The notes under the pieces: generated by a model | Told to the model about the DNA's origin: nothing | The model's input: only the letters and a program-made list of their open reading frames with translations | The model's database searches: none | NCBI RefSeq assembly: GCF_001705235.1 | Contig: NZ_MCGV01000001.1 | Span: 3,010,181 to 3,042,180, forward strand | DNA from: Clostridium pasteurianum | GTDB lineage: Bacteria > Bacillota > Clostridia > Clostridiales > Clostridiaceae | Length of the DNA: 32,000 bases | Direction: 5' to 3' | Made by a program: the position numbers and the translations under genes | Shown here: positions 1 to 27,487 of the stretch, piece by piece | How the letters are laid out: each line of letters starts with the position of its first letter | Position numbering within the stretch: position 1 is the stretch's first letter

Positions 1-250
1 TATGACCATTTTTATAATACAATTATATCATTTATGTAATCGCTAATCATATATATTTTTTAAGCTGAACGTTTGAAAATAAATCCGTTTATGGTGCAGA
101 ACAACTAAATGAAGCAACTGCTGAATTAAGAATGGGGTCTTTTGTAATCTAACGAGACGAAAAAGGTTGTAATCTGCTAAAGCCCGAACGTCATATATGA
201 AAGTATCCTTCTGCTGACGCTACGGAAAATTTAAAATTTGAAATTAGAGG

Positions 251-487
251 CTTTCCATAGTGAAATGGAGGAAAGGTGTCCTTGTTTTTATTTTAAGGAA
301 AGGAATAGTATTGGGGGAACGGTTTAAATAAAATTCAATAAGTCTTGCCGCAAATTATAAAAAAACTTAGAAATTTTAATTTGTTTGAGCTTTTTTTCAG
401 CGATTTATTAAAATTTATTAGTTCTTTTATAATTTGTAGCTTAGACTTATGAGTTTTATTTAATGTTTCCTAAATACTACTCCTTCC
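251..487 (+). repeat. Long-hairpin repeat element, copy 1 (stem-loop 251-275, hairpin 297-487)
   Basis: CTTTCCATAGTGAAATGGAGGAAAG at 251-275 is shared with the copies at 5094 and 21966. Arms 297-380 and 405-487 are near-complementary. The apical loop TTGTTTGAGC-N7-CAGCGATTTAT is shared with copies 2 and 3. Upstream GGAAAATTTAAA (224-235) also occurs before copy 4, so the left boundary may be near 223. Confidence 0.8.
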
Positions 488-520
488 CTAATATGCTATA
501 CTAGAAATGAGGTGATAGCA

Positions 521-1161: not shown

Positions 1162-4100
1162 ATGTTTAATGTAACTGAGGATAGTATTAAACAGTGGATG
1201 AAACCCAAAATATACACGGAATCCTTAAGCTTTTATGAAAATGATAATATTAGTAGCATACAAATAAACGAGAGCCATAATGAATTTTATAATGCAAATT
1301 TCGTTGAACTAAAAGGAGAAGTAGAAGATTTAAATGGAAATGTACATGAGGCTCTCTTATTATTTAATGATAAAACAGGTATAAATATTATTAAATGCGA
1401 TTGCAAAAAATCCAAAATTGATGATATTTGCAGTCATGTTGGTGGTATTTTAATAAAATATGTAAGGGAAAAAGGATACATTAGTGATAAATCAAAAGAC
1501 TATTTTACCGAAAAGTTTTTAGATAGGATAAAATGTGATCTTATAAGGCGTGGTAAATCAGGAATTCCTGTTAATATGGAAATAAGGATTCATTATTTTA
1601 CAGAAGAATTTAATAGGAGTTATGCGGAGATAAAAGCAGGGGAAGAAAAATTGTATGTAGTTAGAGATATAAGTAAGTTTCTAAATTCAGTTTTGTTAAA
1701 TAAAAATATTGAATTAGGAAAAGAATTTACATACAATCGTGATAAATATTACATAAAATCAGAGGATAAAGAGACTATTAATTGTCTTTATGAAATCTAT
1801 AAGAATAACATTATAGGACTTGTACAAGATAACGAAAAAATGATTTCAGGCAAGAAGGTATATCTCATAGGGACCGATATTAGAAGGATAATGGAAGCAA
1901 TGAAAGATAGAATGTTCAAGTTCTCTATTGATGGAGAGGAAGATATTTCTGTAAGTATAACTAATAAATTTCCTCCAATATACATAAAGTTAGAACAAAA
2001 AAATGAATTCCTTCAATTAATATTAATGGGAGACACTCCTATATCACTTACATATGACAGCAAATACATATATTATAAAGAAAATATATATAGGCTAAAT
2101 GAATATCAAATGGGTGTTTTTAAATTACTGATTGGCGAATTTTTAAGAAATAGTAACATAATAAAATTTAGTGCGGAAAAATCTCAGGAAGTATTATCAT
2201 ATATACTTCCTATTTTAAGTCAATTGGAAATACGAAAGAATGTAGATGATAAAATCAATGAAAAACTTTATAATAAAATGCTAAAACCTGAGATTTATAT
2301 AGATAAATTTCATAGAGGCATGCTAATAAATGTTAGATATAATTATGATAATACAAATGCAAATAATGAAAAAAGTATTATTCTTAAGGATATAATGCTT
2401 GAGGTAGAAATTATACGTATTTTAAAAGAGTTTAAATTTGAAAAGTTAGAGACAGGATATGTAAATATTAATTTAGAAAATATAGTTCACTTTATGGCTT
2501 ATGGAATCGTTGAAATTCAGAAAAAGGGCTGCCAGGTTTTTTATTCTGAAGATTTTAAGAGCTATAAAGTATATTCTGAGTCAAGTTATAGAGGAAATAT
2601 AAGGCTAAATGATAGAAGTGAGCTTGAGATAAATTTCCAAATAGAAGGTGTTGATGCTGAAAAACTTCAAAACATATTTAATGCTATTGATGAAAAAAAG
2701 AAGTACTACGAATTAAAGGAAGGCAAATTTGTTGATTTAGATAACAAAGCTATAAAAAGTGTTAGAGATATGTTTCATTATCTTGACATAAGTCCTTTAA
2801 AGGCAGCTCAAACAGGCGTAGTGCTTTCAAAATATAATAGTTTTTATGTGGATAAGTATGTTGATGAAGAAAAGTTGGTATTTTTTAATAAGAATAAAAG
2901 GCTTAAAAAAGCAGTGAATTCATTAAAAAATGTAGATGATATAGAAATAAAATTACCCATTGAGTTTAAAGATGTAATGAGAGAATATCAAAAAAAGGGG
3001 TTTAGGTGGTTTAAGATACTTGACCATTTTGGATTTGGTGGGATACTTGCAGATGAAATGGGACTAGGTAAAACGCTTCAAACAATAGCTTTTATATGCT
3101 CAGAAAAAGAATACAGGAAACCAAGTATTATAGTTGTGCCTACATCAATAGTATACAACTGGCAGGAGGAAATAAAAAAATTTGCTCCTAAGCTTAAAGT
3201 TTTAATTATAAGCGGAAGTAAGCACGAAAGAAAAAAATTAATAAAAAACTGCATGGATTACAATGTTATTATAACTTCTTATCCTCTTATAAGAATTGAT
3301 ATAGAGGAGTATAGTAATATAGAATTTAAATATTGTTTTTTAGATGAGGCACAGTATATAAAGAATAAAGCTTCAATTTCAGCTAGAGCGGTAAAGAGAA
3401 TAAAGGCTAAAAATCGTTTTGCACTTACGGGAACTCCTATAGAAAATTCACTTTCAGAATTATGGTCTATATTTGATTTTATAATGCCTGGGTATCTTTT
3501 AAGTCATTCAAAGTTTGTAAAAAATTATGAGAAGCCTATTATTAAGGATAAAAATAGCAGGGCAGCAATTGAATTAAATAGACATATTAGACCGTTTATT
3601 TTACGCAGAATTAAGAAGAATGTAGTAAAGGAATTACCAGATAAAATTGAACATGAGATTTTAGTTGATATGACTAAAAAGCAAAAAGAAGTTTATCATT
3701 CATATCTTAAAAATGGAAGAAATAAGGTATATGAAAATATAAAAGATAAGGGCATAAATAATAGCAAGTTTATAATATTAGGCCTTTTAACAAGATTAAG
3801 ACAAATATGCAGTAATCCCGCTTCATTTATTAAAAATTATAGTGGAGAAAATTCTAAAATGGATGTGCTTATGGATATTTTAACAGATGGGATAGCAAAT
3901 GGTCACAGGATATTGGTATTTTCACAATTTGTAAGTGTACTTAAAATTGTGAAAGATAGACTTAATGAAGAAAATATATCGTATATGTACCTTGATGGAA
4001 GTACTAAAATGAAGGAAAGAGTTGAACTTGCAGATAGATTTAATATGGGAGATGGAAAGGTATTTTTAATATCACTTAAAGCTGGTGGTACAGGACTTAA

Positions 4101-5014: not shown

Positions 5015-5050
5015 AAAGGGCGATGGAACTATATTCCATTGCCCCTTTTA
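5015..5050 (+). terminator. Intrinsic terminator after the EIIA-like gene
   Basis: AAAGGGCGATGGAA-CTATAT-TCCATTGCCCCTTT stem-loop followed by TTTT. Confidence 0.6.
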
Positions 5051-5093
5051 GCCTTAAGTAAGTAACTAAAAAAATTAATACTAAAGTTAAAAA

Positions 5094-5331
5094 CTTTCCG
5101 TAGTGAAACGGAGAAAAGGTTTCGTTGTTTTTATTCTAAATGAAGTAACAGTATTTTGGCAACGATTTAAATAAAACTTAATAAGTCTTGCTTCAAATTA
5201 CAAAAGGACTTAGAAATTTTAATTTGTCTGAGCATCTTTTCAGCGAGTTATCAAAATTTCCTAGTCCTTTTATAATTTGGAGCTTAGACTTATGAGTTTT
5301 ATTTAATGTTGCCAAAATACTGTTACTTCAT
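5094..5331 (+). repeat. Long-hairpin repeat element, copy 2 (stem-loop 5094-5118, hairpin 5140-5331)
   Basis: CTTTCCGTAGTGAAACGGAGAAAAG, then a TGTTTTTAT spacer. The basal 24 bp ATGAAGTAACAGTATTTTGGCAAC / GTTGCCAAAATACTGTTACTTCAT pair perfectly. The central part closely resembles copy 1 by eye. The right arm contains the telA stop codon. Confidence 0.85.
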
Positions 5332-6471
5332 CTTTTTCAAGTATTCAACTTTTAAATTATTAAGTTTATTCATACCCTCATCACGGAGCTTTTTATTTTC
5401 TTCTTCTATTCTTTCTGTCTCATTAATTCCATCCATTATTATTTTCCATGTTTCTTCAAGTGTCTCGATTTTTATTGATGGAGAACCGGTTATTTTTGCT
5501 ATATCAATACTTTGGTCTTTTATATTATTGGCATTTTTTAAAAGAAGTTCATTTGTAGCCTTATCTAAAGCTTCCATGGATTTTGCTACTGATTTTTGTC
5601 TTCTTAAAGTTATAGCCTGTATTAGACCATTTTTAAATACTGGTAGAGTTACTATAAAAGCAGAATGAATTTTACCTATCAGTTTATAGTTACCTTTCTG
5701 TATTGTTCGTATTTGAGGAGCTGTTTGCATAGAAACCATTTTTGCCATTTCAAGATCATAAAGTCTTTGTTTTAACATTTCAAGTGAATACTGCACTTCT
5801 TGAAGTTTAAGGGCATCTTCTTGAAGACCACTTTCTGCCTTTTCAGTCCAATAAGGTATGTCTTCACGTTCTATTTCTTGTATTGTAAGTTCACAGGCAG
5901 CAGAATATTTTTCAAGCTCTATGTAATAATCAAAATTTTGAGCAAACATTTCTTCAAGCATTTTGTTAGTATCCATTATTTCTGTTTTGTAGGAGCTTAT
6001 CCTAGAATAGATTCTGTCTATTTCAGTTCCAAAGCTCTGATATTTCTTTAAAATGCTCTGAACTGTTTTTTTGCCGGAATTAAATATTTTTGAAAAAAAT
6101 CCTTCTGGTTTTTCCTCAAGTTCCTGCTTATCAAATTTGCTCATTATTATAGTCAATTCCTTTAAAAGAGCACTGGAGTTTTCAACACTACTTAGCTTCA
6201 TTGTTTTTAATATTCTATCTGAAAACTGTGAAATTTGTTCAGCAGGAGCATTACCAAATTGCATTATTGAATTTATATCCATTACGTTCAGATTCTTTGA
6301 AATTTCAATTACTTCTGGAGAGTTTTTTAGTTTTTCATTTATTTGTTTTATTTTATCTTCTATTTCTTTATCTGTGTCGGAAATGTTATTATTGTCATTA
6401 TTAGAGATATCATTTTTTATGACTGTGTTATCTTCTTTATCATTATTAAAATTAAATCTCATTAAAGTCAT
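5323..6471 (-). CDS. telA: TelA / toxic anion resistance family protein (YceH-like)
   Basis: About 380 aa, coiled-coil rich, with the MQFGNAPAEQISQFSDRIL region typical of TelA (PF05816) as I recall it. Its ATG overlaps the upstream TGA (ATGA), indicating translational coupling. An alternative start is the ATG at 6462. Confidence 0.75.
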   Translation of the reverse strand: MTLMRFNFNNDKEDNTVIKNDISNNDNNNISDTDKEIEDKIKQINEKLKNSPEVIEISKNLNVMDINSIMQFGNAPAEQISQFSDRILKTMKLSSVENSSALLKELTIIMSKFDKQELEEKPEGFFSKIFNSGKKTVQSILKKYQSFGTEIDRIYSRISSYKTEIMDTNKMLEEMFAQNFDYYIELEKYSAACELTIQEIEREDIPYWTEKAESGLQEDALKLQEVQYSLEMLKQRLYDLEMAKMVSMQTAPQIRTIQKGNYKLIGKIHSAFIVTLPVFKNGLIQAITLRRQKSVAKSMEALDKATNELLLKNANNIKDQSIDIAKITGSPSIKIETLEETWKIIMDGINETERIEEENKKLRDEGMNKLNNLKVEYLKKMK

Positions 6472-8420: not shown

Positions 8421-9269
8421 ATGAAAATTGCTGTTTTGTCAGATATACATGGGAATTTAACTGCTCTTAATGCTGTACTTAAGGATATTAAAAAATTAGG
8501 CATTAATAAGTTTATAATTGCTGGTGACCATATCATAGATTGCCCAAATCCAAATGAAGTATTAGAAAAAATTAAAACTTTAGATGCATATATTATAAAA
8601 GGAAATAGAGAAGAATATTTACTAGATTATTATAAAGGAAAACATGATGAATGGAATAAATATAAGCAGATGGGAGCTATATTATATACATACAATATCA
8701 TAAGTGAAGACAATATGAAATATATTGATGGATTACCAGAACAATTGAGAATTTCCTTACCACAAATGGATGATATAAGAGTAGTGCATGGTTCACCGTA
8801 TAGAATTAATGAGGAACTTTTTCCAGACAAGCATCTTGAAAGGTTAGAAAAAACACTTAAAAATTTAAAAGAGCAAGTTTTAATTTGTGGTCATACACAC
8901 TATGCATGGAGTAAAGAGATAAATAATAAATTAATAGTAAATCCAGGATCTGTGGGTGTTCCATTTAATGAAAATAAATCTGCTGAATACGCTGTTTTAA
9001 CATGGAGTGGTGCTAAGTGGAAAGTTTCCCATCATCAAGTAAAGTATGACTTAAAAGAGTTACAGCAATTGTTTCTTGAAAACAAACTTTTTGAGAAATG
9101 TCAGGCTTGGTCCCGGCTAACACTTCAAAGCATAAAAGAAGGTAGGAATGTAACAATAGAGTTTATTAGATATGCTTATAAATTAGCTCAAAATGGTGGA
9201 GTTAGTGAACCGAAATTTGTGCCGAATAGCATTTGGGATATGGCAGAAAAACTTTGGTTTAATTCTTAA
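8421..9269 (+). CDS. Metallophosphoesterase (calcineurin-like phosphoesterase)
   Basis: DIHGN, GDH, GNRE and GHTH motifs in the canonical order. Confidence 0.85.
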   Translation: MKIAVLSDIHGNLTALNAVLKDIKKLGINKFIIAGDHIIDCPNPNEVLEKIKTLDAYIIKGNREEYLLDYYKGKHDEWNKYKQMGAILYTYNIISEDNMKYIDGLPEQLRISLPQMDDIRVVHGSPYRINEELFPDKHLERLEKTLKNLKEQVLICGHTHYAWSKEINNKLIVNPGSVGVPFNENKSAEYAVLTWSGAKWKVSHHQVKYDLKELQQLFLENKLFEKCQAWSRLTLQSIKEGRNVTIEFIRYAYKLAQNGGVSEPKFVPNSIWDMAEKLWFNS

Positions 9270-9490
9270 GCAAAATAATGTGATTAAAGAAATTAAAAAT
9301 TAAGTATAGTGGCAACTTTTCCTACAATTCACTAAGAAAAACTTTTAAATTTATAAACACCGCAATTCGCACTAATAGTGATGTTATCTTATATTGTGAG
9401 GGTTTCCAAGAGAAAAGTGGCGGAAAATCTGAAATTAAAACTATATAATGCATTAAATTATTTAAATGTTAGAAAAAGTTGTTCGCACTT

Positions 9491-9724
9491 AAAATTCCGT
9501 AGGTACGGAGGAATTTTTACATTGCTTTACTTCTTAAGCCAAATAACAATGATGAAGGAATGATTTAAAAGAATTCTAATAAAGCTTGGTAAAAAAATCA
9601 TAAAATACTTAGTGTTTTTAATTTGTTTGAGCTTTTTCTCAGCGAGTTATTAAAAACACTTAGGATTTTATGATTTTTTTGACTTAGCTTTATAGAATTC
9701 TTTTAATGTTCCTTCATCATTGTT
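9491..9724 (+). repeat. Long-hairpin repeat element, copy 3 (stem-loop 9491-9517, hairpin 9546-9724)
   Basis: Divergent stem-loop AAAATTCCGTAGGTACGGAGGAATTTT. Arms AACAATGATGAAGGAA... / ...TTCCTTCATCATTGTT pair over about 78 nt. The apical loop TTGTTTGAGC-N7-CAGCGAGTTAT matches copies 1 and 2. Upstream CGGAAAATCTGAAATTA (9421-9437) resembles the copy 1 flank. Confidence 0.8.
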
Positions 9725-10340
9725 ACTCGGCTTTTTCAACTAGTTTTGAAAAATATCTTTTTGGTATATAGCCTTGTTTAATTCCCTCCACAACCAATAA
9801 ATAGGTAGCTGTAGTATCAAATCTAGCATCATGAAAGTTTCCGTCTTCTTCAAAGTACTTTTGGCTCATTCTGTTAATATAAGATTCATCTATGCCTAAA
9901 AAGTTTACTACTTCTTCCAGCCTCGGCTTTTTATAATTGCCATGGTTATTTAGAATTTTACATATACCTTTGTAATAATTCATAGTACAAAAAATGTGTT
10001 TTGGATTAAAAGGTTTCTTACATTGAAATAATTCATGTTTCATGAACTTTAAATCAAAATTAACATTATGCCCTATAAAGATATCTGCATTTAGAAAATC
10101 AGGAAGCAAATTTTCTAAACTGTCCTCAAAAGATTTTCCACTACTTAGCTTGTACAAATCATCTACGCTAAAACCGTGAACTTTTTCTGCACTTGGCTCT
10201 ATATAATCAACTGAAAAGAAAAAATTTTCACCAATTGTTTTATTCGGTTTTACATCTGTATCAACAAGGATATAACTTAGCTGACAAATGCTTCCGGGCA
10301 TTAATCCAGTTGTTTCCGTGTCAAAAAATATCATTTTCAT
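9723..10340 (-). CDS. DEDDh 3'-5' exonuclease (DnaQ/PolC-exonuclease-like), stand-alone
   Basis: FFDTETTGL (Exo I), HNVNFDLKF (Exo II), HDARFDT (Exo III, His type). ATG lies 9 nt after AGGAGAC. Confidence 0.85.
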   Translation of the reverse strand: MKMIFFDTETTGLMPGSICQLSYILVDTDVKPNKTIGENFFFSVDYIEPSAEKVHGFSVDDLYKLSSGKSFEDSLENLLPDFLNADIFIGHNVNFDLKFMKHELFQCKKPFNPKHIFCTMNYYKGICKILNNHGNYKKPRLEEVVNFLGIDESYINRMSQKYFEEDGNFHDARFDTTATYLLVVEGIKQGYIPKRYFSKLVEKAE

Positions 10341-10452: not shown

Positions 10453-10458
10453 AATTAT

Positions 10459-10748
10459 TAAGTGCATTGATGGGAAGAGTAGTAAATGGAAGCAGTTAAA
10501 GAGAGCTGATGCTTGGTGAGATTCAGCGGTGCTAAGGTTTATGAACATGGCCCCGGAGCAGAATATCTGAAGTTTAGTAGGGTATTACGTTAGCAGACGT
10601 TACACTGCAGGGTGATAAATAATTTTAAGTTAGGAGTCACTTGTTGAGATTTTCATTGTGAGATGAAAATGAATTAGAGTGGTAGAGCGAAATTACGCCT
10701 CTAAATAAGAGTTTATACTTTTATTTAGAGGCTTTTTTATTTAATAAA
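10459..10748 (+). promoter_or_regulatory. T-box riboswitch leader, Met specifier
   Basis: Stem I start GATGGGAAGAGTAG, AGAGAG and GGTGAGA motifs, ATG codons at 10541 and 10546 in the specifier region. T-box sequence AATTAGAGTGGTAGAGCGA (10672-10690). Terminator GCCTCTAAATAAG...TTATTTAGAGGC followed by TTTTTT (10697-10748). Confidence 0.85.
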
Positions 10749-15411: not shown

Positions 15412-15432
15412 GAGCTTAGGCTCCTTTTTTTT
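15410..15432 (+). terminator. Intrinsic terminator after yabE
   Basis: AGGAGC-TTAG-GCTCCT followed by eight T. Confidence 0.75.
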
Positions 15433-15459
15433 AATGTTACAAAGCATCGTTAATTCACT
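15426..15459 (+). repeat. Solo fragment homologous to the right-arm end of hairpin element copy 4
   Basis: TTTTTTTAATGTTACAAAGCATCGTTAATTCACT versus 22274-22307 TTTTTTTAATGTTACAAATCAATGTTAATTCGCT. The first 18 nt are identical, about 29 of 34 overall. No complementary left arm is nearby. Confidence 0.6.
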
Positions 15460-17011: not shown

Positions 17012-18403
17012 TTGAGTCAGAAAAAGAATTACAGTAGAAGTTTTATAATTCTTCAAGAGAATGAAAAAGGATATGAGATATCTTCTGATAAACTTCCTAC
17101 AGGTTATGCAAAGATAGAAATAAAAAATGGCAAATGCAAGGTATCTTTTTATGTTCAAAATTTAAAGAAGATGTCTAAACCATATAGTATGCTGCTTGTT
17201 TGTGATAAAAAAAATACAAAAAAATTAATTCATTTGGGAAAAATTAATATAGATGAATATGGGAGATCAGAAATAAGCAGAGAATTTGAGGAAAGCGATA
17301 TAGCAGGAAGCGGTATACCTGTAGATAGAGTTGTAGGAGCATCTATTGCACAGGTTATAGAGGATAATATCATTGCTGTTATGAGTGGATTTAATGCTTC
17401 AGATGTATCAGATTCATGGAAAACATATCCTGTGGCTCAAGTAAAAAAGGAAACTGATGAAACAAATAAAGTAAGTGAGAATATAGAACAATCTCATAAG
17501 GATGATATTAGAAAAGACGAGGCTCAGGAAGCAGTATCAAAGAAAAAAGAGAATACAACTAATGTATTTGATGAATATGAAAAGAGAGTACAGGCGAAAG
17601 CAGACAAACAAGATGAAGAGGTAAACAAAGTAAAAGAAGTAAATGCAGTAAAAGAAGTAAAAGAAGTAAAAGAAGTAAATGCAGTAAAAGAAGTAAAATC
17701 AGAGAATACAGAAATTAGTAAAGAAAAGACCAAGGAAAAGACCAAAGAGAGACACCAAGATAAAAGGGACAATGCACAAGAAGATAGTGTGCAGGATAGT
17801 AGCAGCGAAGATGAAAGCAACAATAATGTAGAAGAAACTAGTACAGTAGAGGGAATCAATAAATTAGAAGATAATGATAATACAGATGAAATTAATAAAG
17901 TTAGTGATATAGAAGATAATAATTATGATTCATATCAAAGTGTAAATGAGGATGAAGAAGATTTGAGTGAACTTCCTAAGGGAAGAGTAGGAAAATTCTT
18001 TAGAAGTCTTACTAATGGACTTGAAGATCTAGGAGATGTTTTCCCAGATGTAAAGCGCTGCCAGTGGTATAAAATATCATCTGAATATCCTCAAAACATG
18101 TTTGATTCTCAAAGTTATAATAGATATGCTGTGATATATTACCCAATGTTAATGTATTATCCGTACATCGAAAAATATGGACATTATTTGCTAGGATATA
18201 AGTGTGATAAAAATGACAATATGAAATACATTGTATATGCAGTTCCAGGAACGAAAAAAAGAACAGAGCAGCCATTTGGAGGAAAAACTGGTTTTGTTTC
18301 ATGGATTCCGCTTGTAGATGGTGATGAAAAAGAGGATTCTCTTGGATATTGGCTTATGTTTTATGATTTCAAAAATGCAACTATAGCAGTACCTAAAAGA
18401 TAA
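17012..18403 (+). CDS. Hypothetical protein: N-terminal domain, acidic/Lys-rich low-complexity centre, aromatic-rich C-terminal domain
   Basis: 463-aa ORF. TTG start 9 nt after GGGAGG. Coding-like composition throughout. No family recognised. Confidence 0.7.
   Translation: MSQKKNYSRSFIILQENEKGYEISSDKLPTGYAKIEIKNGKCKVSFYVQNLKKMSKPYSMLLVCDKKNTKKLIHLGKINIDEYGRSEISREFEESDIAGSGIPVDRVVGASIAQVIEDNIIAVMSGFNASDVSDSWKTYPVAQVKKETDETNKVSENIEQSHKDDIRKDEAQEAVSKKKENTTNVFDEYEKRVQAKADKQDEEVNKVKEVNAVKEVKEVKEVNAVKEVKSENTEISKEKTKEKTKERHQDKRDNAQEDSVQDSSSEDESNNNVEETSTVEGINKLEDNDNTDEINKVSDIEDNNYDSYQSVNEDEEDLSELPKGRVGKFFRSLTNGLEDLGDVFPDVKRCQWYKISSEYPQNMFDSQSYNRYAVIYYPMLMYYPYIEKYGHYLLGYKCDKNDNMKYIVYAVPGTKKRTEQPFGGKTGFVSWIPLVDGDEKEDSLGYWLMFYDFKNATIAVPKR
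17621..17701 (+). repeat. In-frame 9-nt tandem repeat (GTAAAAGAA and variants, 9 units)
   Basis: GTAAACAAA GTAAAAGAA GTAAATGCA GTAAAAGAA x3 GTAAATGCA GTAAAAGAA GTAAAATCA encodes VNKVKEVNAVKEVKEVKEVNAVKEVKS. A second short repeat, GAAAAGACCAAG x2, follows at about 17722. Confidence 0.9.
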
Positions 18404-20973: not shown

Positions 20974-21918
20974 ATGACAAAAGTAAAGAAGTTAATAGCA
21001 GTTGCTTGTGTAGCAGCCACTATACTAACAATTAGTGGTTGTGACAATACAAAAGATATAAGCATGAATGTCAAAAAGGGCGATAAATATGTTTCTAGTC
21101 TTACTGAAAATGAGAGCACTTCAATGAGTGTGAATGGAGAAAATGTTAATACAAAACAAAAGCTTGACACAAGTTATGATGTTAAAGTAACTGATGTAGA
21201 TAAGAATAATAATGTAACTATGGAATACAAATATGCTGATATAAAGATTGAACAAGAATCCAATGGACAAACTGTAAGCTATGATACTAAAAAATTAAAT
21301 GCTAGCAGCGGCGGTGAAGCTCAGATATATAAAGATCTTATTGGAAAGAGCTTTTCTGTGAAATTTACGAATAAAGGTAAAGTTCTATCTATAAAAGGAA
21401 TAGGTGAAATACTTGATTCTATAGCTGATAAAGCTGTTACTGATGATAGTCAAAAGCAAAAGGTTAAAGACATATTGTCAAAGAATTTTGGAGACGATAC
21501 TATTAAATCAAGCTTGCAGCAGAGCATGGGATTTTATCCAAAAGATAAGATAAATGTAGGAGACACATGGGAAAATAAATTTAAGTATAATATTATATTA
21601 CCTGTCTCTGTAAGTAGTAAATATAAATTATCAAGTGTCCAAAATAATCAATATGTTATAGATGTAAATTCAAAACTTGCTACAGACAGTGGATCCAAAG
21701 ATGGAGAGATTGATGGAATTAAAGCAAAAGTAAAATTAAATGGAAATATAAATGGTAATATAAATATAAATAAAGATGATTGTATTTTAGGTGATGGAAA
21801 ATTAACTGAGACATTAAAAGGTACAATATATGTTCCTGCAAGTGATAATGTTCCAACAGATCTTAAATTTCCAGTAACAATGAAAATAAATATTAATTAT
21901 AAAACTATAAAGAAATAA
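20974..21918 (+). CDS. Hypothetical lipoprotein
   Basis: Signal peptide with lipobox (TILTISGC). ATG lies 8 nt after GGGGGGA. Beta-rich, Lys/Asn-rich mature part. Confidence 0.75.
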   Translation: MTKVKKLIAVACVAATILTISGCDNTKDISMNVKKGDKYVSSLTENESTSMSVNGENVNTKQKLDTSYDVKVTDVDKNNNVTMEYKYADIKIEQESNGQTVSYDTKKLNASSGGEAQIYKDLIGKSFSVKFTNKGKVLSIKGIGEILDSIADKAVTDDSQKQKVKDILSKNFGDDTIKSSLQQSMGFYPKDKINVGDTWENKFKYNIILPVSVSSKYKLSSVQNNQYVIDVNSKLATDSGSKDGEIDGIKAKVKLNGNINGNININKDDCILGDGKLTETLKGTIYVPASDNVPTDLKFPVTMKININYKTIKK

Positions 21919-21965
21919 AAAATAGGTCTGATGCGATAAAGGTTAAGGAAAATTTAAATTAAAAG

Positions 21966-22307
21966 CTTTCCATAGTGAAACGGAGGAAAGATGTCCATGT
22001 TTTACTCCAAAAGCGAATTAACATTGATGAAGTAACAATTTAAAAAAATCTAATGAATGTTATCATACAAGAGGCTGGGGCTTGGGTCAAAGACCCATTA
22101 TCCTTCTTAATCTAATATAAGCACTCTCTATATTATGAGAGTGCTTGTTTAGATAGATCTTAAAATATTTATAGATCAAAATTATTAGGCGTAAACATTA
22201 AGATAGCCTATATTTTATAAAGAAGGATAATGGGTCTTTGACCCAAGCCCCAGCTATGATAAGATTTATTAGATTTTTTTAATGTTACAAATCAATGTTA
22301 ATTCGCT
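21966..22307 (+). repeat. Long-hairpin repeat element, copy 4 (stem-loop 21966-21990, hairpin 22012-22307) with a different apical module
   Basis: CTTTCCATAGTGAAACGGAGGAAAG. Basal arms AGCGAATTAACATTGATGAAGTAACAATTTAAAAAAATC / GATTTTTTTAATGTTACAAATCAATGTTAATTCGCT. The apex is replaced by the 22074-22254 element. Confidence 0.8.
22074..22254. repeat. 181-bp element with perfect 35-bp GC-rich terminal inverted repeats, nested in copy 4
   Basis: GCTGGGGCTTGGGTCAAAGACCCATTATCCTTCTT (22074-22108) is the exact reverse complement of 22220-22254. The 111-bp core holds three small hairpins, including AAGCACTCTC-TATATTAT-GAGAGTGCTT. Confidence 0.85.
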
Positions 22308-22802
22308 CTATTTCTCGTAGCTTTCAACTATTTCTCCAAAGAAAAGTGTGTGAAATCTACCATCACTATAAATTTTATCTTTTATGTCTTTATCAATTTT
22401 TGAAAGATCAATATCACTAGAATATACTACTTTGCATTCGTAATAAATTCCACAGTCATCTATAATTGGCGCAGATAATTTTTTTGAGTCTTTCGTTTTT
22501 ATATTGGCTTCTTTAAATTTATTTATGTCCCTTCCTGATTTTGTTCCACAGATTGAAAGTGCTTTTTTCAATTTGTCATTAGTGGGTATGCTTATGGTAA
22601 ATTCTTTTGATTCTTTTATGAAGTCATAAGAATATCTTGAAGTTCTTATTAATGCCATAAATATTGGACGATTCCATTCGTAACCTATGTTGCCCCAGCT
22701 TATAGTCATTGTATTAGTTTTATCACCATTTTTTACAGTTAAAAATGCACCTTGTTTATGAAGATATTCCATAGCCTTATCTAAGTTATTAGTAAAATCC
22801 AT
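22308..22802 (-). CDS. Flavin reductase-like FMN-binding (split-barrel) protein
   Basis: About 160 aa with TISWGNIGYEWNRPIF and an overall pattern resembling the flavin reductase/flavoredoxin family. ATG lies 8 nt after AAGGAGG. Confidence 0.55.
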   Translation of the reverse strand: MDFTNNLDKAMEYLHKQGAFLTVKNGDKTNTMTISWGNIGYEWNRPIFMALIRTSRYSYDFIKESKEFTISIPTNDKLKKALSICGTKSGRDINKFKEANIKTKDSKKLSAPIIDDCGIYYECKVVYSSDIDLSKIDKDIKDKIYSDGRFHTLFFGEIVESYEK

Positions 22803-25507: not shown

Positions 25508-25815
25508 ATTATTTAAATATAAAGCTATAAAATTGCAATGAAGGAAAGAGTAGATTTAACTGAGCTTTCAGAGAGCCGGGCTTTAAGCTGTGAACCGGCA
25601 GCGAGATTAAATTGAAGAACATTCTGGAGTAGTTAACCAAAATCTTTTTGAAAGTAGGCTTAAACGGATGTCCATCGTTAAAGGGAATAGGTATTGATGT
25701 TTTTAGAGAACATTTTGTACTGAATTGAGTTAGCATTTTGCTAAGTAGGGTGGCACCGCGTTATATACAATCGCCCCTATACCAATATTATATTTGGTAT
25801 AGGGGCGATTTTTTA
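25508..25815 (+). promoter_or_regulatory. T-box riboswitch leader, Asn (AAC) specifier
   Basis: Stem I start AATGAAGGAAAGAGTAG, AGAGAG and GTGAACC motifs. Specifier context TTGAAG-AAC-A-TTCTGGAGTA (AAC at 25618-25620). T-box AAGTAGGGTGGCACCGCG (25743-25760). Terminator ATCGCCCCTATACC...GGTATAGGGGCGAT followed by TTTTTT (25769-25815). Confidence 0.85.
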
Positions 25816-25839: not shown

Positions 25840-27132
25840 ATGAAAAAATTTTATGTCAAAGATGTATTTTCCATGAATGAAGGGGATGAAATAGTACTTA
25901 AAGGATGGGTTCATAAAATTTATGATCTCGGTCATGTTAATTTTATAAGACTAAGAGATAAAACAGGAATTGCTCAGCTAGTAACAACTAAGGAACAATT
26001 AGAAGGTCTTAGAAATGAAACTTGTATAGAAGTTAAGGGAAAACTAAGTAAAAATGAAAAAGCTATTAATGGAATGGAAGTTCAAGTAGAAGATATAAAA
26101 ATTTTAGGAAAAGTTTATTATGATAAATTACCTTTTGATATAAATGGTAAAAAAATAAATGCAGCACTTGAAACTCAACTTGATCATAGAAACATAAGTC
26201 TTAGAAAACCTAATATACTCGCAATTTTCAAAATTCAAGAACAAATTGGAGATTGTTTTAGAGATTTTTTAAGAGAAAATGGCTTTACAGAAATACATAC
26301 ACCTAAAATATTGGCATCAGGAACTGAGGGTGGAAGTGAGCTTTTCACTGTAAATTATTTTGATCATAGAGCATTTTTAGCTCAGAGTCCTCAATTTTAC
26401 AAGCAGATGATGGTTGGAGTTGGATTTGAAAAAGTTTTTGAGGTAGGTCATGCTTATAGAGCAGAGCTTCATAATACTTACAGACATTTAAATGAGTATG
26501 TGAGTCTTGATGCAGAAATGGGCTTTATAGAAGATGAGACTGAAATAATGGATCTTGAAGAAAGATTTATGAACTATTTATTCAAAAAATTAAGAGAGAA
26601 TTGTGCAAGGGAACTTGAAATGTATAATATAACTTTACCCCAAAAAGTTAACATACCAAGGATTCCTCTTTCAGAAGCACAGGAGATTGTTTATAAAGAA
26701 TATGGTAAAAGATCACCTAAGGGAGATTTGAATGCTGAAGGTGAAAGATTGTTTGGAAAGTATATTAAGGAGAAGTATGATAGTGATTTTGCTTATCTTA
26801 CAAAGTATCCTCTTTCAAAAAGGCCTATGTATACAATGCCTGATGATGAAATAGAAGGAGCCTCAAAGAGCTTTGATTTAATATATAAAGGTCTTGAAAT
26901 AACAACAGGTGGTCAAAGAATTCATGATCATGATATGCTTGTAGAAGCTATAAAGAAAAAAGGATTTAAACCAGAAGAGTTTGAATTCTATACGGAAAAC
27001 TTTAGATACGGTATGCCACCTCATGGAGGTTTTGCTATAGGTCTTGAAAGACTTACAATGCAGATATTAGGACTTGAAAATATAAGAGAAGCATCATTAT
27101 TGCCAAGAGATATGAAGAGAATAACACCATAA
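25840..27132 (+). CDS. aspS: Aspartyl-tRNA synthetase, archaeal/short type (likely non-discriminating)
   Basis: About 430 aa. QSPQFYKQ, motif 3 GGFAIGLERL, C-terminal LPRDMKRITP. The ATG at 25840 follows GGAGGG. The ORF-track extension covers the T-box terminator and was discarded. Confidence 0.88.
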   Translation: MKKFYVKDVFSMNEGDEIVLKGWVHKIYDLGHVNFIRLRDKTGIAQLVTTKEQLEGLRNETCIEVKGKLSKNEKAINGMEVQVEDIKILGKVYYDKLPFDINGKKINAALETQLDHRNISLRKPNILAIFKIQEQIGDCFRDFLRENGFTEIHTPKILASGTEGGSELFTVNYFDHRAFLAQSPQFYKQMMVGVGFEKVFEVGHAYRAELHNTYRHLNEYVSLDAEMGFIEDETEIMDLEERFMNYLFKKLRENCARELEMYNITLPQKVNIPRIPLSEAQEIVYKEYGKRSPKGDLNAEGERLFGKYIKEKYDSDFAYLTKYPLSKRPMYTMPDDEIEGASKSFDLIYKGLEITTGGQRIHDHDMLVEAIKKKGFKPEEFEFYTENFRYGMPPHGGFAIGLERLTMQILGLENIREASLLPRDMKRITP

Positions 27133-27387
27133 TTATGTTTGAAAATATTGATAAAAATTTATGGAGCTAACAGATTCTAAGGATTGCTCGTTTATAATTG
27201 TCTACCCATTTAAATGTATCATCCTGATGCTTAAATGGCTTCGCACGTCCTGTGCGAAATTACGCCAATTATAAGTCGCAAATCCTAAGAGTCTGTAAAC
27301 TCCAACATACAATATCAACATTATTCAAACATAATTATTAAGAAAGTTAAGGTTAATGAAAATTTTTTTCCGTTTCACTACAAAAAA
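27130..27387 (-). repeat. Long-hairpin repeat element, copy 5, inverted orientation (stem-loop 27387-27363, hairpin 27337-27130)
   Basis: The minus strand reads TTTTTTGTAGTGAAACGGAAAAAAA, a 13-nt exact match (GTAGTGAAACGGA) to copy 2. The 208-nt hairpin TAATTATGTTTGAA... / ...TTCAAACATAATTA has a branched apex. Its first 3 nt on the plus strand are the aspS stop codon. Confidence 0.7.
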
Positions 27388-27487
27388 TTGATATTAGTTT
27401 TTTATACATTAAAAATTTGGTAAAGTGAAATTAAGAAAAAGTGTCATTAACAGTTAATTGATTATCAAAAACAAGGAGCTGATTATT

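Follow-up and report, generated by a model that had tools for sequence, protein, structure and literature searches.

Palindromic repeats at the stop codons of genes in Clostridium pasteurianum and related Clostridium genomes

Described repeat families and the Clostridium elements

Several families of co-transcribed MITEs have been described in bacteria, among them Correia/NEMIS in Neisseria, ERIC/IRU in enterobacteria and Yersinia, RUP/BOX in the pneumococcus and bcr1 in the Bacillus cereus group. These elements are 100-350 bp long, carry long inverted repeats that fold as RNA hairpins, and show presence/absence polymorphism between relatives. Orientation-dependent effects on mRNA stability or processing are known for ERIC and, with RNase III, for Correia, and terminator or promoter activity is found occasionally. 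To our knowledge, strict abutment to stop codons in a single orientation is not a described property of these families.

Most REPs are found behind ORFs, in the spacers of convergent or co-directional gene pairs, and the stop codon often comes from a REP terminus (PMC3733652). They have been proposed to stabilise mRNA, to terminate transcription and to stall ribosomes close to the stop codon (PMC3733652, PMC12306157); for the stalling of ribosomes, PMC12306157 cites Liang et al. 2015. A REP is defined by a basal stem of 7-20 bp, a loop of 2-5 nt or a bulged second stem, and a GTAG or GTGG 0-2 nt 5' of the stem (PMC6006769).

Here we describe five copies of a repeat in a 32 kb stretch of C. pasteurianum DNA (32,000 nt, “the window”). 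Each copy consists of a short stem-loop, which we call the tag, a spacer and a hairpin of 190-300 nt. A covariance model of the tag identified exactly these five copies in the window and gave zero chance matches in shuffled sequences. The features are as follows.

243-490, forward strand: copy 1, with tag 247-279 and hairpin 296-489 (repeat comparison, RNAfold, covariance model)
5021-5050, either strand: GC-rich hairpin between the PTS-EIIA gene and copy 2, outside the repeat (-17.9 kcal/mol, both strands)
5090-5122, forward strand: tag stem-loop of copy 2, in which the stem CTTTCC/GAAAAG closes the loop GTAGTGAAACGGA (43.6 bits; dG -6.7)
5123-5137, forward strand: T-rich spacer of copy 2 between the tag and the long hairpin, beginning GTTTCGTTGTTTTTATTC (alignments)
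5138-5333, forward strand: long imperfect hairpin of copy 2, about 85 bp, its helix starting 8 nt before the stop codon (RNAfold)
5323-5325, reverse strand: telA stop codon TAA, within the hairpin arm (ORF list, Pfam)
9313-9345, reverse strand: degenerate solo tag, a weak, borderline match (16.9 bits, E 0.26)
9489-9733, forward strand: copy 3, with tag 9489-9519 (shorter loop, GTAGGTACGGA) and hairpin 9536-9733 (RNAfold, covariance model)
15426-15459, forward strand: solo piece that matches the right arm of copy 4 at 88% identity, directly after the canonical terminator of a yabE-like gene
21962-22308, forward strand: copy 4, with tag 21962-21994 and hairpin 22012-22307/8 (RNAfold, covariance model)
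27129-27391, reverse strand: copy 5, inverted, with hairpin 27129-27338 and tag 27359-27391, the tag stem all A/T (RNAfold, covariance model)

The tag is directional, with a variable stem of 5-8 bp and a conserved loop of 11-14 nt (GTAG...CGGA), and it is separated from the long hairpin by a T-rich spacer of about 20 nt. The long hairpin is imperfect. Copies 1-3 and three copies in C. neuense share an asymmetric apex, ..TTTGTCTGAGC..TCAGCGAGTTA.. (5223-5246 in copy 2), and the inner hairpin is flanked by AAATAAAAC and GTTTTATTT. A net 2-nt bulge is conserved across copies 1-4 and appears in copy 2 as AAC-GA-TTTAAA / TTTAAT-GTT. Between copies 1 and 2 the identity is 82-84% across about 250 nt, and this includes the outer arms (blastn). 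The interiors of copies 4 and 5 are different, and a second palindromic module is nested in both arms of copy 4 (22074-22134 and 22194-22254).

Folding z-scores for the hairpins were -14 and -16. Compensatory changes were found in 36 of 93 long-hairpin pairs (five copies, two species), with outer stems that vary between copies and keep their complementarity, and both sides changed in six of eight tag-stem pairs (17 instances; 0 of 500 shuffles reach that), although arm-to-arm conversion in DNA palindromes can also yield compensatory change without selection on the folded strand.

Apart from two T-boxes in the window, which lie away from the elements, Rfam covariance models at gathering and permissive thresholds on both strands returned nothing on the elements, the window or the related loci, and a tRNA and tmRNA search found none. 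A plasmid or phage origin was rejected: blastn against plasmid and phage collections yielded no DNA similar to the elements, and viral contigs scanned for the tag had none. We also discarded a small ORF behind the GGAGG of the tag, as the peptides that can be read there (6-14 aa) are not conserved. Literature searches returned no match to the tag loop sequence and no report of such a gene-end repeat family in solventogenic-group Clostridia.

The feature at 5094-5331 probably belongs, as one copy, to a lineage-specific family of non-coding, non-autonomous, mosaic palindromic repeats with members of about 250-360 bp. We read the family best as mobile, mosaic palindromes akin to REPs, BIMEs and MITEs, which enter the 3' ends of ORFs in one direction and then form the 3' UTR there. 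On this reading its members are not mainly transcription terminators.

Like REPs, BIMEs and REPINs, the Clostridium elements are non-coding palindromes oriented by an asymmetric tag, and inverted pairing often gives rise to larger hairpins and mosaics. They differ from REPs in several respects. The GTAG is part of the tag loop (11-14 nt, on a stem of 5-8 bp) and does not stand 0-2 nt 5' of a stem, and by inspection no window copy has GTAG or GTGG at the foot of its long hairpin. The unit is 250-360 bp, compared to 20-40 bp for a REP. REPs with GTAG tags are mobilised in Proteobacteria by RAYT Y1 transposases, whereas the window ORFs include no RAYT gene; the host here is low-GC, and the REP survey in PMC3733652 mentions neither Clostridium nor Firmicutes.

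With MITEs the family shares terminal inverted repeats, multiple dispersed copies and empty sites in relatives. In contrast to MITEs, it has an extra asymmetric tag outside the inverted repeat, and we saw neither an evident target-site duplication nor a related full-length IS. Eight complete junction pairs showed no consistent direct repeat by eye, in a comparison where the tag-side boundary is unfixed and empty and filled sites are too diverged. The window and the fetched Clostridium loci yielded no gene for a transposase or nuclease.

The third comparison is with integron attC sites, which are likewise imperfect hairpins at the 3' ends of ORFs, often over the stop codon, and in which the sequence varies while structure and extrahelical bases are conserved. 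attC sites are recognised strand-specifically as folded single-stranded DNA, a mode of recognition also proposed here for the tag of the Clostridium element. Unlike cassettes, the Clostridium copies are dispersed behind housekeeping genes and form no cassette array, and there is no intI or other integrase gene in the window; as read from the sequence, the 7-mers of the conserved boxes AACGATTTAAA / TTTAATGTT do not fit the R''/R' cores RYYYAAC/GTTRRRY.

Placement at stop codons and comparison with related genomes

The first-pass annotation of this DNA had noted that four of the five hairpins have their far end at the stop codon of an opposite-strand gene, with the tag distal. To describe this placement we used an offset, defined as the position of the first paired base of the long helix (RNAfold) relative to the first base of the stop codon; the identities of the neighbouring genes were confirmed with Pfam. 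The offset was -8 for telA (TAA 5323-5325, helix 5138-5333) and for the exonuclease gene (TAA 9723-9725, helix 9536-9733), +2 for the flavin reductase gene (TAG 22308-22310, main helix 22012-22307/8) and -1 for aspS (TAA 27130-27132, helix 27129-27338). The observation was therefore borne out: four of five copies begin their long helix -8 to +2 nt from the stop codon of the incoming gene. The right arm of copy 2 holds the telA TAA together with the last two sense codons, the flavin reductase TAG adjoins the arm of copy 4, and the aspS TAA lies at the base of the copy 5 helix. The exonuclease TAA does overlap the arm of copy 3 as annotated, although that arm runs on to 9733 and does not end at 9724. 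Copy 1, upstream of the UDG gene and with no gene at its far end, is the sole exception to the placement rule.

Given about 3,650 nt of non-element intergenic DNA, 27 gene ends (both from the ORF list), a 15-nt target per end and one of two orientations, our own arithmetic puts the probability of such placement by chance at p ~0.05 per copy and at ~3e-5 for four of five copies.

Six further element ends, four in C. neuense and two in L005 (a relative with a 94% identical TelA), all obey the rule. The C. neuense offsets were +3 at aspS, +4 at the desulfoferrodoxin gene (dfx), +1 at an unnamed gene and +6 at uvrB. In L005 the homologous arm follows directly after the telA TAA, and the adh_short stop codon lies within 0-5 nt of an arm end; one arm of each of these two copies is assembled, and they stand outside the offset figures. 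In the three related genomes, 10 of 11 element ends are thus at the stop codon of the incoming gene, with the tag distal throughout and offsets of -8 to +6 nt among the eight elements with both arms assembled. These 11 ends represent some 8-9 independent events, as some are probably orthologous (copy 2 and the L005 telA copy; perhaps copy 5 and the C. neuense aspS copy). Like REPs, the elements lie downstream of ORFs in both convergent (copies 2-4) and co-directional contexts (copy 5 and the C. neuense aspS, dfx and uvrB copies) and have termini able to provide the stop codon; placement there is merely frequent in REPs but close to obligatory in the Clostridium family.

Copies 1-4 share the leading-strand orientation, as judged by GC skew. 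We considered whether orientation is set by replication, as in IS200/IS605, and rejected this. Because the inverted copies (copy 5 and three of the four in C. neuense, at aspS, desulfoferrodoxin and uvrB) keep their orientation relative to the gene, orientation follows the gene and not the replication strand. G.U pairs are slightly more frequent on the tag strand of the long hairpins (25 vs 14), and four of five copies fold slightly better there. An attempt to determine the functional RNA strand from G.U versus A.C mismatches gave no conclusion, as it was confounded by strand composition and the tag intermediates go both ways.

In some cases the element provides the stop codon and between one and about five of the codons before it. 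Copy 3 appears to supply the final 2-3 codons of the exonuclease gene, to judge by homologues, whose C-termini are 1-3 aa shorter or different. The length of the TelA C-terminus is unchanged in element-free relatives.

Orthologous sites are empty in the C. acetobutylicum group. The telA-EIIA spacer of loci L006 and L007 is 44-64 nt long and holds no element, only a single hairpin straight after the telA stop codon. The orthologous spacer in L006 also lacks copy 1, and neither blastn nor the tag model found a tag or element in L006, L007 or L017-L024. Conversely, the adh_short site is occupied in L005 and empty in the window. The empty orthologous sites of close relatives show that the copies are insertions, and the preference for gene ends or stop codons that had been suggested for this DNA is well supported by the empty sites and by the 10 of 11 element ends. 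The position of the hairpin at 5021-5050 matches that of the single hairpin of L006 and L007, and it is therefore likely the ancestral bidirectional terminator. We considered that copy 1 might be a segmental duplicate of the EIIA-copy 2 locus and rejected this, as the left flanks have no similarity.

The same comparisons show that members of the family occur at partly different sites in at least three genomes of related Clostridium, and that element interiors have been exchanged or have taken up a second small palindromic module. Copy 4 shares its interior with the L005 telA copy and with one arm of the C. neuense dfx copy. At the aspS site, C. neuense has an element in the same orientation as copy 5, with an interior of the copy 1-3 type, which copy 5 lacks; altogether this site has three different repeats in three species, each beginning at the TAA.

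Termination, nuclease recognition and growth in place

One alternative, put forward in the first-pass annotation as a portable 3'-end module, is that the selected function of the element is to end and stabilise the transcript of the adjoining gene, with the long hairpin as stabiliser and the antisense tag with its U-tract as intrinsic terminator. We regard this as possible but doubtful. The order of stop codon, hairpin and antisense tag is kept in every case, and the element is in the place of a terminator: element-free relatives have a canonical terminator directly after the telA stop codon. The antisense sequences quoted for copies 2 and 4 in support of this proposal are correct; on the reverse strand the copy 2 tag is followed by TTTTT and the copy 4 tag by TTTTAATTT. 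In addition, the sequences AAATAAAAC / GTTTTATTT around the inner hairpin resemble a bidirectional terminator. The description of the motif as an intrinsic terminator is weakly supported: a simple consensus scan flagged the antisense tags of copies 2 and 3 as terminator-like but not those of copies 1, 4 and 5.

The folds are marginal. In the window the folding energies of the antisense tags are -2.7 to -6.7 kcal/mol, and in C. neuense they reach -9.2 kcal/mol, compared to -9.0 to -17.9 kcal/mol for the canonical terminators of the window and -21.7 kcal/mol for a canonical terminator in a relative. The U-tract is good only in copy 2 among the window copies and is poor at the C. neuense aspS and desulfoferrodoxin tags. 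It had also been claimed that the genes concerned have no other recognisable terminator. This agrees with the scan for the exonuclease and flavin reductase genes, which have no other scan-positive terminator, and counts in favour of the module; it fails for telA: reading on from telA, the strong hairpin at 5021-5050 (-17.9 kcal/mol) follows 45 nt past the tag of copy 2. An efficient terminator between aspS and gatCAB, the position of copy 5 and of the C. neuense aspS copy, would do harm if gatC had no promoter of its own. No gene adjoins copy 1 at its far end, and G.U pair counts give the gene-sense strand no advantage. Finally, the tag loop (11-14 nt) is conserved across copies, species and even phyla. 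Termination needs no such conservation, and the loop therefore points to sequence-specific recognition. Termination by the antisense tag would be at most a weak side effect.

A second alternative takes the tag as an Ssn-related motif, that is, a directional hairpin that is bound and cut nearby, as single-stranded DNA, by a small Ssn-family GIY-YIG nuclease; this we consider improbable. On this view the repeats would mark gene ends for the processing of ssDNA (transformation, recombination or replication), like NTS/dRS3 in Neisseria. The comparison arises from metagenome contigs L008 and L011-L013, in which small tandem GIY-YIG genes (Pfam GIY-YIG, PF01541) are flanked by repeats with the identical 13-nt loop, an ATTCC/GGAAT stem and a 5' GTCA flank; the database matches were, however, selected by the loop pattern, so that the shared loop is partly circular evidence, and by our own estimate a few chance matches are expected in the metagenome scan. 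NTS (CGTCATTCCCGCG..GCGGGAATC) has the same general form as the tag and is directional (PMC11893778). Like the Clostridium tag and the metagenome repeats, NTS/dRS3 and the SRM are directional hairpin repeats of the ATTCC...GGAAT type in intergenic mosaics around genes; the formation of such mosaics by NTS/dRS3 is described in PMC11893778, which likens the NTS-ssnA-NTS layout to insertion sequences.

On the other hand, the published degenerate SRM pattern, HGTCWYN(0-2)YYVSBRHN(0-5)WNVSBRGN(0-2)RNCYNB, matched neither the window tags nor the metagenome repeats in a regex search of the window and all loci. The SRM takes its orientation from a conserved, non-palindromic 5' flank (CGTCA/GTCW). This GTCW flank, called crucial in PMC11893778, is absent from the window tags, which are preceded by AAAAA, AGAGG, AAAAG or TCAA, whereas the metagenome tags in L008-L013 do carry a GTCA flank. 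In the Ssn system the repeats surround a gene for a small GIY-YIG protein of one domain (cd10448). By tblastn there is no GIY-YIG gene in the window or in any fetched Clostridium locus; such genes were found only in L008 and L011-L013. For NTS, the sections of PMC11893778 (Chenal et al. 2025) consulted here describe neither placement at stop codons nor an attached long hairpin. The single SRM-pattern match in the window falls in unrelated coding DNA.

Growth in place without any mobility, in which ordinary terminators or 3' UTR structures were enlarged by palindrome extension and gene conversion and came to resemble one another by convergence or local duplication, would account for outer stems that differ between copies and are still complementary, and for an inverted repeat that takes in the final codons of telA and of the exonuclease gene, as if the gene end had served as template for the tag-side arm, but we consider it very unlikely given the empty sites in close relatives, the whole-length identity of copies 1 and 2 (82-84%) at 4.8 kb distance in unrelated contexts, the 77-78% identity of copy 3 to two C. 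neuense copies at non-orthologous sites, and the arm ends AAGTRACAGTATTTT and GCNAAGTAACAATG common to copies behind different genes.

Proposed mechanism and significance

The preferred reading, a mobile repeat that inserts directionally at the ends of ORFs, can be put as a sequence of steps. A trans-acting enzyme encoded elsewhere would recognise the asymmetric tag, and perhaps also the apex and the bulge, probably as single-stranded DNA. Insertion by this enzyme would be directional and at the 3' ends of ORFs, where terminator stems close to the stop codon may be the target. A model in which the element entered the loop of a terminator that was already present is unsupported at telA, where the equivalent of the ancestral terminator (5021-5050) lies outside the element. 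Once inserted, the element would be transcribed as the 3' UTR of the gene, and its long hairpin could then act as a block to 3' exonucleases or as a substrate for RNase III. The overlap of the helix base with the stop codon may also hinder ribosomes at termination, an effect reported for REPs in E. coli.

A bolder proposal is that these repeats represent a new kind of mobile element, inserted in one orientation by machinery that senses where an ORF ends (the stop region or a stop-proximal terminator stem), with the tag serving as the handle for a hairpin-specific ssDNA enzyme. We think this unlikely. If true, it would imply a widespread tag-and-enzyme system that installs ready-made 3' UTR hairpins behind genes in Firmicutes, and such hairpins might regulate the decay of mRNA, the termination of translation or the processing of ssDNA at the ends of genes. 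The occurrence of the tag loop beside GIY-YIG nuclease genes elsewhere suggests a candidate enzyme class. As the placement is strict, the way in which gene ends are found could be tested with few sequences, namely a tag, an apex and a bulge.

The family would extend REP/BIME-like gene-end repeats to low-GC solventogenic-group Clostridia. It also bears on annotation and assembly, since the elements supply stop codons and alter the last residues of some proteins, and they break short-read assemblies at gene ends; both contig ends of L005 stop inside copies. The elements are, in addition, candidate portable 3' UTR parts for Clostridium engineering.

Two smaller features resemble parts of the element. 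The solo piece at 15426-15459 is absent from the orthologous spacers of relatives and may be an element remnant. The degenerate tag at 9313-9345 is antisense to a metallophosphoesterase gene, which ends 45 nt upstream.

Architecture of the repeat copies

The window holds five copies of a repeat built from a tag stem-loop, a T-rich spacer and a long imperfect hairpin. They lie upstream of the UDG gene (copy 1) and after telA, the exonuclease gene, the flavin reductase gene and, inverted, aspS (copies 2 to 5). A covariance model of the tag found these five tags in the window and none further above noise, and an Rfam search matched the elements to no family. Together they are best regarded as a Clostridium family of mosaic palindromic repeats, each bearing a tag.

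Parts of copy 2
within 5094-5331: tag stem-loop, CTTTCC-GTAGTGAAACGGA-GAAAAG
after the tag: spacer of ~20 T-rich bases
5138-5333: long hairpin, near-perfect, 196 nt span

The long hairpin of copy 2 folded at about -99 kcal/mol alone and at about -105 to -108 kcal/mol with tag and flanks (z-scores -14 and -16, one per strand). Across the entire element, copies 1 and 2 share 82-84% identity, and copy 3 has the common architecture with an apex that hardly varies (TTTGTYTGAGC..TCAGCGAKTTA). Copies 4 and 5 have the tag and layout of the others with different interiors; in copy 4 a second palindromic module is nested within both arms. The boxes AAC-NN-TTTAAA / TTTAAT-GTT are common to copies 1-4, each with the identical net 2-nt asymmetry.

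Among five copies from two species, 36 of the 93 base pairs predicted for the long hairpin carried compensatory double changes; apex, boxes and tag were unchanged. This shows maintenance of the pairing, with RNA, ssDNA or inter-arm conversion all compatible as the cause. G.U counts in the long hairpins did not favour gene-sense RNA.

The second module (..GGGTCAAAGACCCATTATCCTTCTT..) occupies 22074-22134 and 22194-22254 in copy 4. It recurs in the telA copy of a 94% TelA relative (L005, about 3259-3303) and in a C. neuense copy after a desulfoferrodoxin gene (L026, about 600-650). Copy 4 carries it in each of its two arms and the latter copy in a single arm, which suggests an independent repeat that invaded the first. 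Separately, a 34-nt piece at 15426-15459 (+), directly after the canonical terminator of a yabE-like gene, matches the right arm of copy 4 at 88% identity. It lacks a partner arm and a tag, was not present in the same spacer of the C. acetobutylicum-group or C. neuense loci, and may be a remnant or the source of an arm.

Placement at stop codons

The first-pass annotation held that the far end of the hairpin, distal to the tag, sits on an opposite-strand stop codon in four of five copies, and this was borne out. When each gene-sense strand was folded, the stop codon of these four lay within or touched the long helix and the tag was always on the far side.

Start of the long helix, counted from the first stop-codon base
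telA, copy 2: -8
exonuclease gene, copy 3: -8
flavin reductase gene, copy 4: +2
aspS, copy 5: -1
C. neuense, desulfoferrodoxin gene: +4
C. neuense, unnamed gene: +1
C. neuense, aspS: +3; site and orientation as window copy 5, interior of copy 1-3 type
C. neuense, uvrB: +6; shorter variant, two inverted tags within the repeat

By our own arithmetic, using the window's ORF list, a single intergenic insertion of random position and orientation would obey this rule with a chance of ~0.05, and four of five copies would do so with a chance of ~3e-5. No gene abuts copy 1, which precedes the UDG promoter. Overall, 10 of 11 element ends obeyed the rule, about 8-9 of these being independent events. The orientation of the copies is set by the gene, not by the replication strand.

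Loci of the C. acetobutylicum group show synteny with the window from 1 to about 23,000, and neither tag nor element was found in them. Their telA-EIIA spacer is 44-64 nt long with one strong hairpin directly after the TAA, and all these relatives have TelA proteins that stop at the same residue (..KKMK*, ..KKIK*, ..KTIK*). The final nine bases of the window telA (ATGAAGTAA) are repeat sequence, since in copy 1 the homologous arm runs across them. L005 has the same arm behind telA but a different, copy 4-like interior. Its other contig end stops within another arm, abutting an adh_short gene; this site is empty in the window, where the encoded protein has a few more residues. In L005 the insertion replaced the final adh_short codons and provided the stop. 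Arm ends (AAGTRACAGTATTTT; TAR-GCNAAGTAACAATG) are common to copies behind different genes and hold stop codons in several frames, so an ORF truncated by the element can be terminated by it. Compared with nine homologues, the exonuclease has 1-3 additional residues at its C-terminus (..VEKAE*).

In C. felsineum the aspS TAA is directly followed by a different repeat family, a 93-nt unit present 5.3 times in tandem (L025 7296-7781), which fills the aspS-gatC spacer. The same stop codon is thus occupied by copy 5 in the window, by another element in C. neuense and by this family in C. felsineum. A C. pasteurianum locus (L028) has a tag-like hairpin without the long hairpin in this spacer, at about 3955-3990 (TTTTCATC-CAGCGTTAGCAA-GATGAAAA); tag-like units may be old residents there.

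Copies 3 and 4 sit in convergent blocks, metallophosphoesterase-copy 3-exonuclease (8421-10340) and DUF6263-copy 4-flavin reductase (20974-22802). The C. acetobutylicum-group loci (L017-L024), syntenic in other respects, lack both blocks, which places the two elements within lineage-specific gene pairs.

In behaviour the element resembles REP/BIME/REPIN repeats and co-transcribed MITEs, which lie downstream of ORFs, overlap stop codons and are able to influence mRNA decay and terminating ribosomes (PMC3733652; PMC12306157). It lacks the sequence features that define REPs, SRMs or attC sites, and it keeps to stop codons with unusual strictness. We propose that a putative enzyme would target the element directionally to ORF ends.

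The tag as a possible recognition site or terminator

The tag stem covaries over 17 instances (CTTTCC/GGAAAG, TTTTTT/AAAAAA, ATTCC/GGAAT, ATCTC/GAGAT, ATCCC/GGGAT): 6 of 8 pairs changed on both sides, which 0 of 500 shuffles equalled, and an alternative register had lower support. The loop GTAGTGAAACGGA is nearly fixed over the same instances, with the variants GTAGGYACGGA and GTAGCGATAGCGGA in copy 3 and C. neuense. A fixed loop on a variable stem is the expected signature of a protein-read site, not of a terminator.

Exact-pattern scans, which selected matches by the loop itself, located this tag in other phyla too, in a few genomes and metagenome contigs. In four contigs (L008, L011-L013) it has a GTCA 5' flank and adjoins tandem genes for GIY-YIG proteins of about 100 aa. 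This matches the layout that PMC11893778 describes for Ssn nucleases, whose NTS/SRM hairpins are directional and are bound and cut solely as ssDNA. A link to Ssn nucleases is a lead only, since the published SRM pattern matches neither window nor metagenome tags, the window tags lack the GTCW flank, none of the fetched Clostridium loci has a GIY-YIG gene, and the foreign hits were chosen by loop.

On these contigs the small GIY-YIG genes (about 95-108 aa, Pfam PF01541) form arrays, some members being frameshifted. Each is preceded by GTCA-flanked hairpin repeats, the window's exact tag loop among them, which gene callers render as an N-terminal extension (MKSFRSETEESL..). In Arenibacter (L004 6800-7010), two tag-like hairpins follow a tRNA gene, and one of them matches the window consensus exactly over 25 nt; the repeats that enclose them are similar in their 3' parts to the T-arm and acceptor end of the tRNA.

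The proposal that the antisense tag is an intrinsic terminator fared less well: a consensus scan picked out copies 2 and 3, not copies 1, 4 or 5. Antisense tag hairpins reached -2.7 to -6.7 kcal/mol in the window, with values up to -9.2 for those of C. neuense, against -9.0 to -17.9 for the window's canonical terminators and -21.7 for a relative's telA terminator. Both copy 5 and the corresponding C. neuense copy are located between aspS and gatCAB. The accompanying claim that the three minus-strand genes have no other recognisable terminator held by scan criteria for exonuclease and flavin reductase. It was wrong for telA, because a -17.9 kcal/mol hairpin (5021-5050) sits 45 nt past copy 2, at the position that corresponds to the terminator shared by the relatives. 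If the antisense tag ends transcripts at all, this is a secondary effect.

A solo tag, weak and degenerate, lies at 9313-9345 (-) (16.9 bits, E 0.26), antisense, 45 nt past the metallophosphoesterase stop and followed by TTTTAAATTT.

Setting of the window

The window has ~30% GC and a strongly positive GC skew, and Pfam shows it to contain a gene block conserved in Clostridium, metG-csp-tatD-yabE-rnmV-ksgA ... aspS-gatCAB. The window TelA shares 72-80% identity with the proteins of the C. acetobutylicum, C. felsineum and C. neuense group and 94% with that of one Logan assembly (L005); for the exonuclease, WP_066021887 (labelled 'MULTISPECIES Clostridium') is a 100% match.

Between a conserved divergent-promoter sequence and copy 1, ~165 nt (60-225, +) have no counterpart in L006, of the C. 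acetobutylicum group, and no similarity to the EIIA-copy 2 flank; the segment ends in a short ORF tail (..GAEQLNEATAELRMGSFVI*, stop 148-150). The ORF at 17012-18403, without a Pfam match in relatives, contains a 9-nt tandem repeat (AAAGAAGTA-like; 17597-17711, +) encoding K/E/V-rich repeats. Two T-box leaders, 10458-10705 and 25529-25781 (+), lie 5' of metG and the non-discriminating aspS. The aspS ORF as listed (TTG at 25738) begins within the T-box; because its homologues have 430 aa, the real start is placed ~34 codons downstream.
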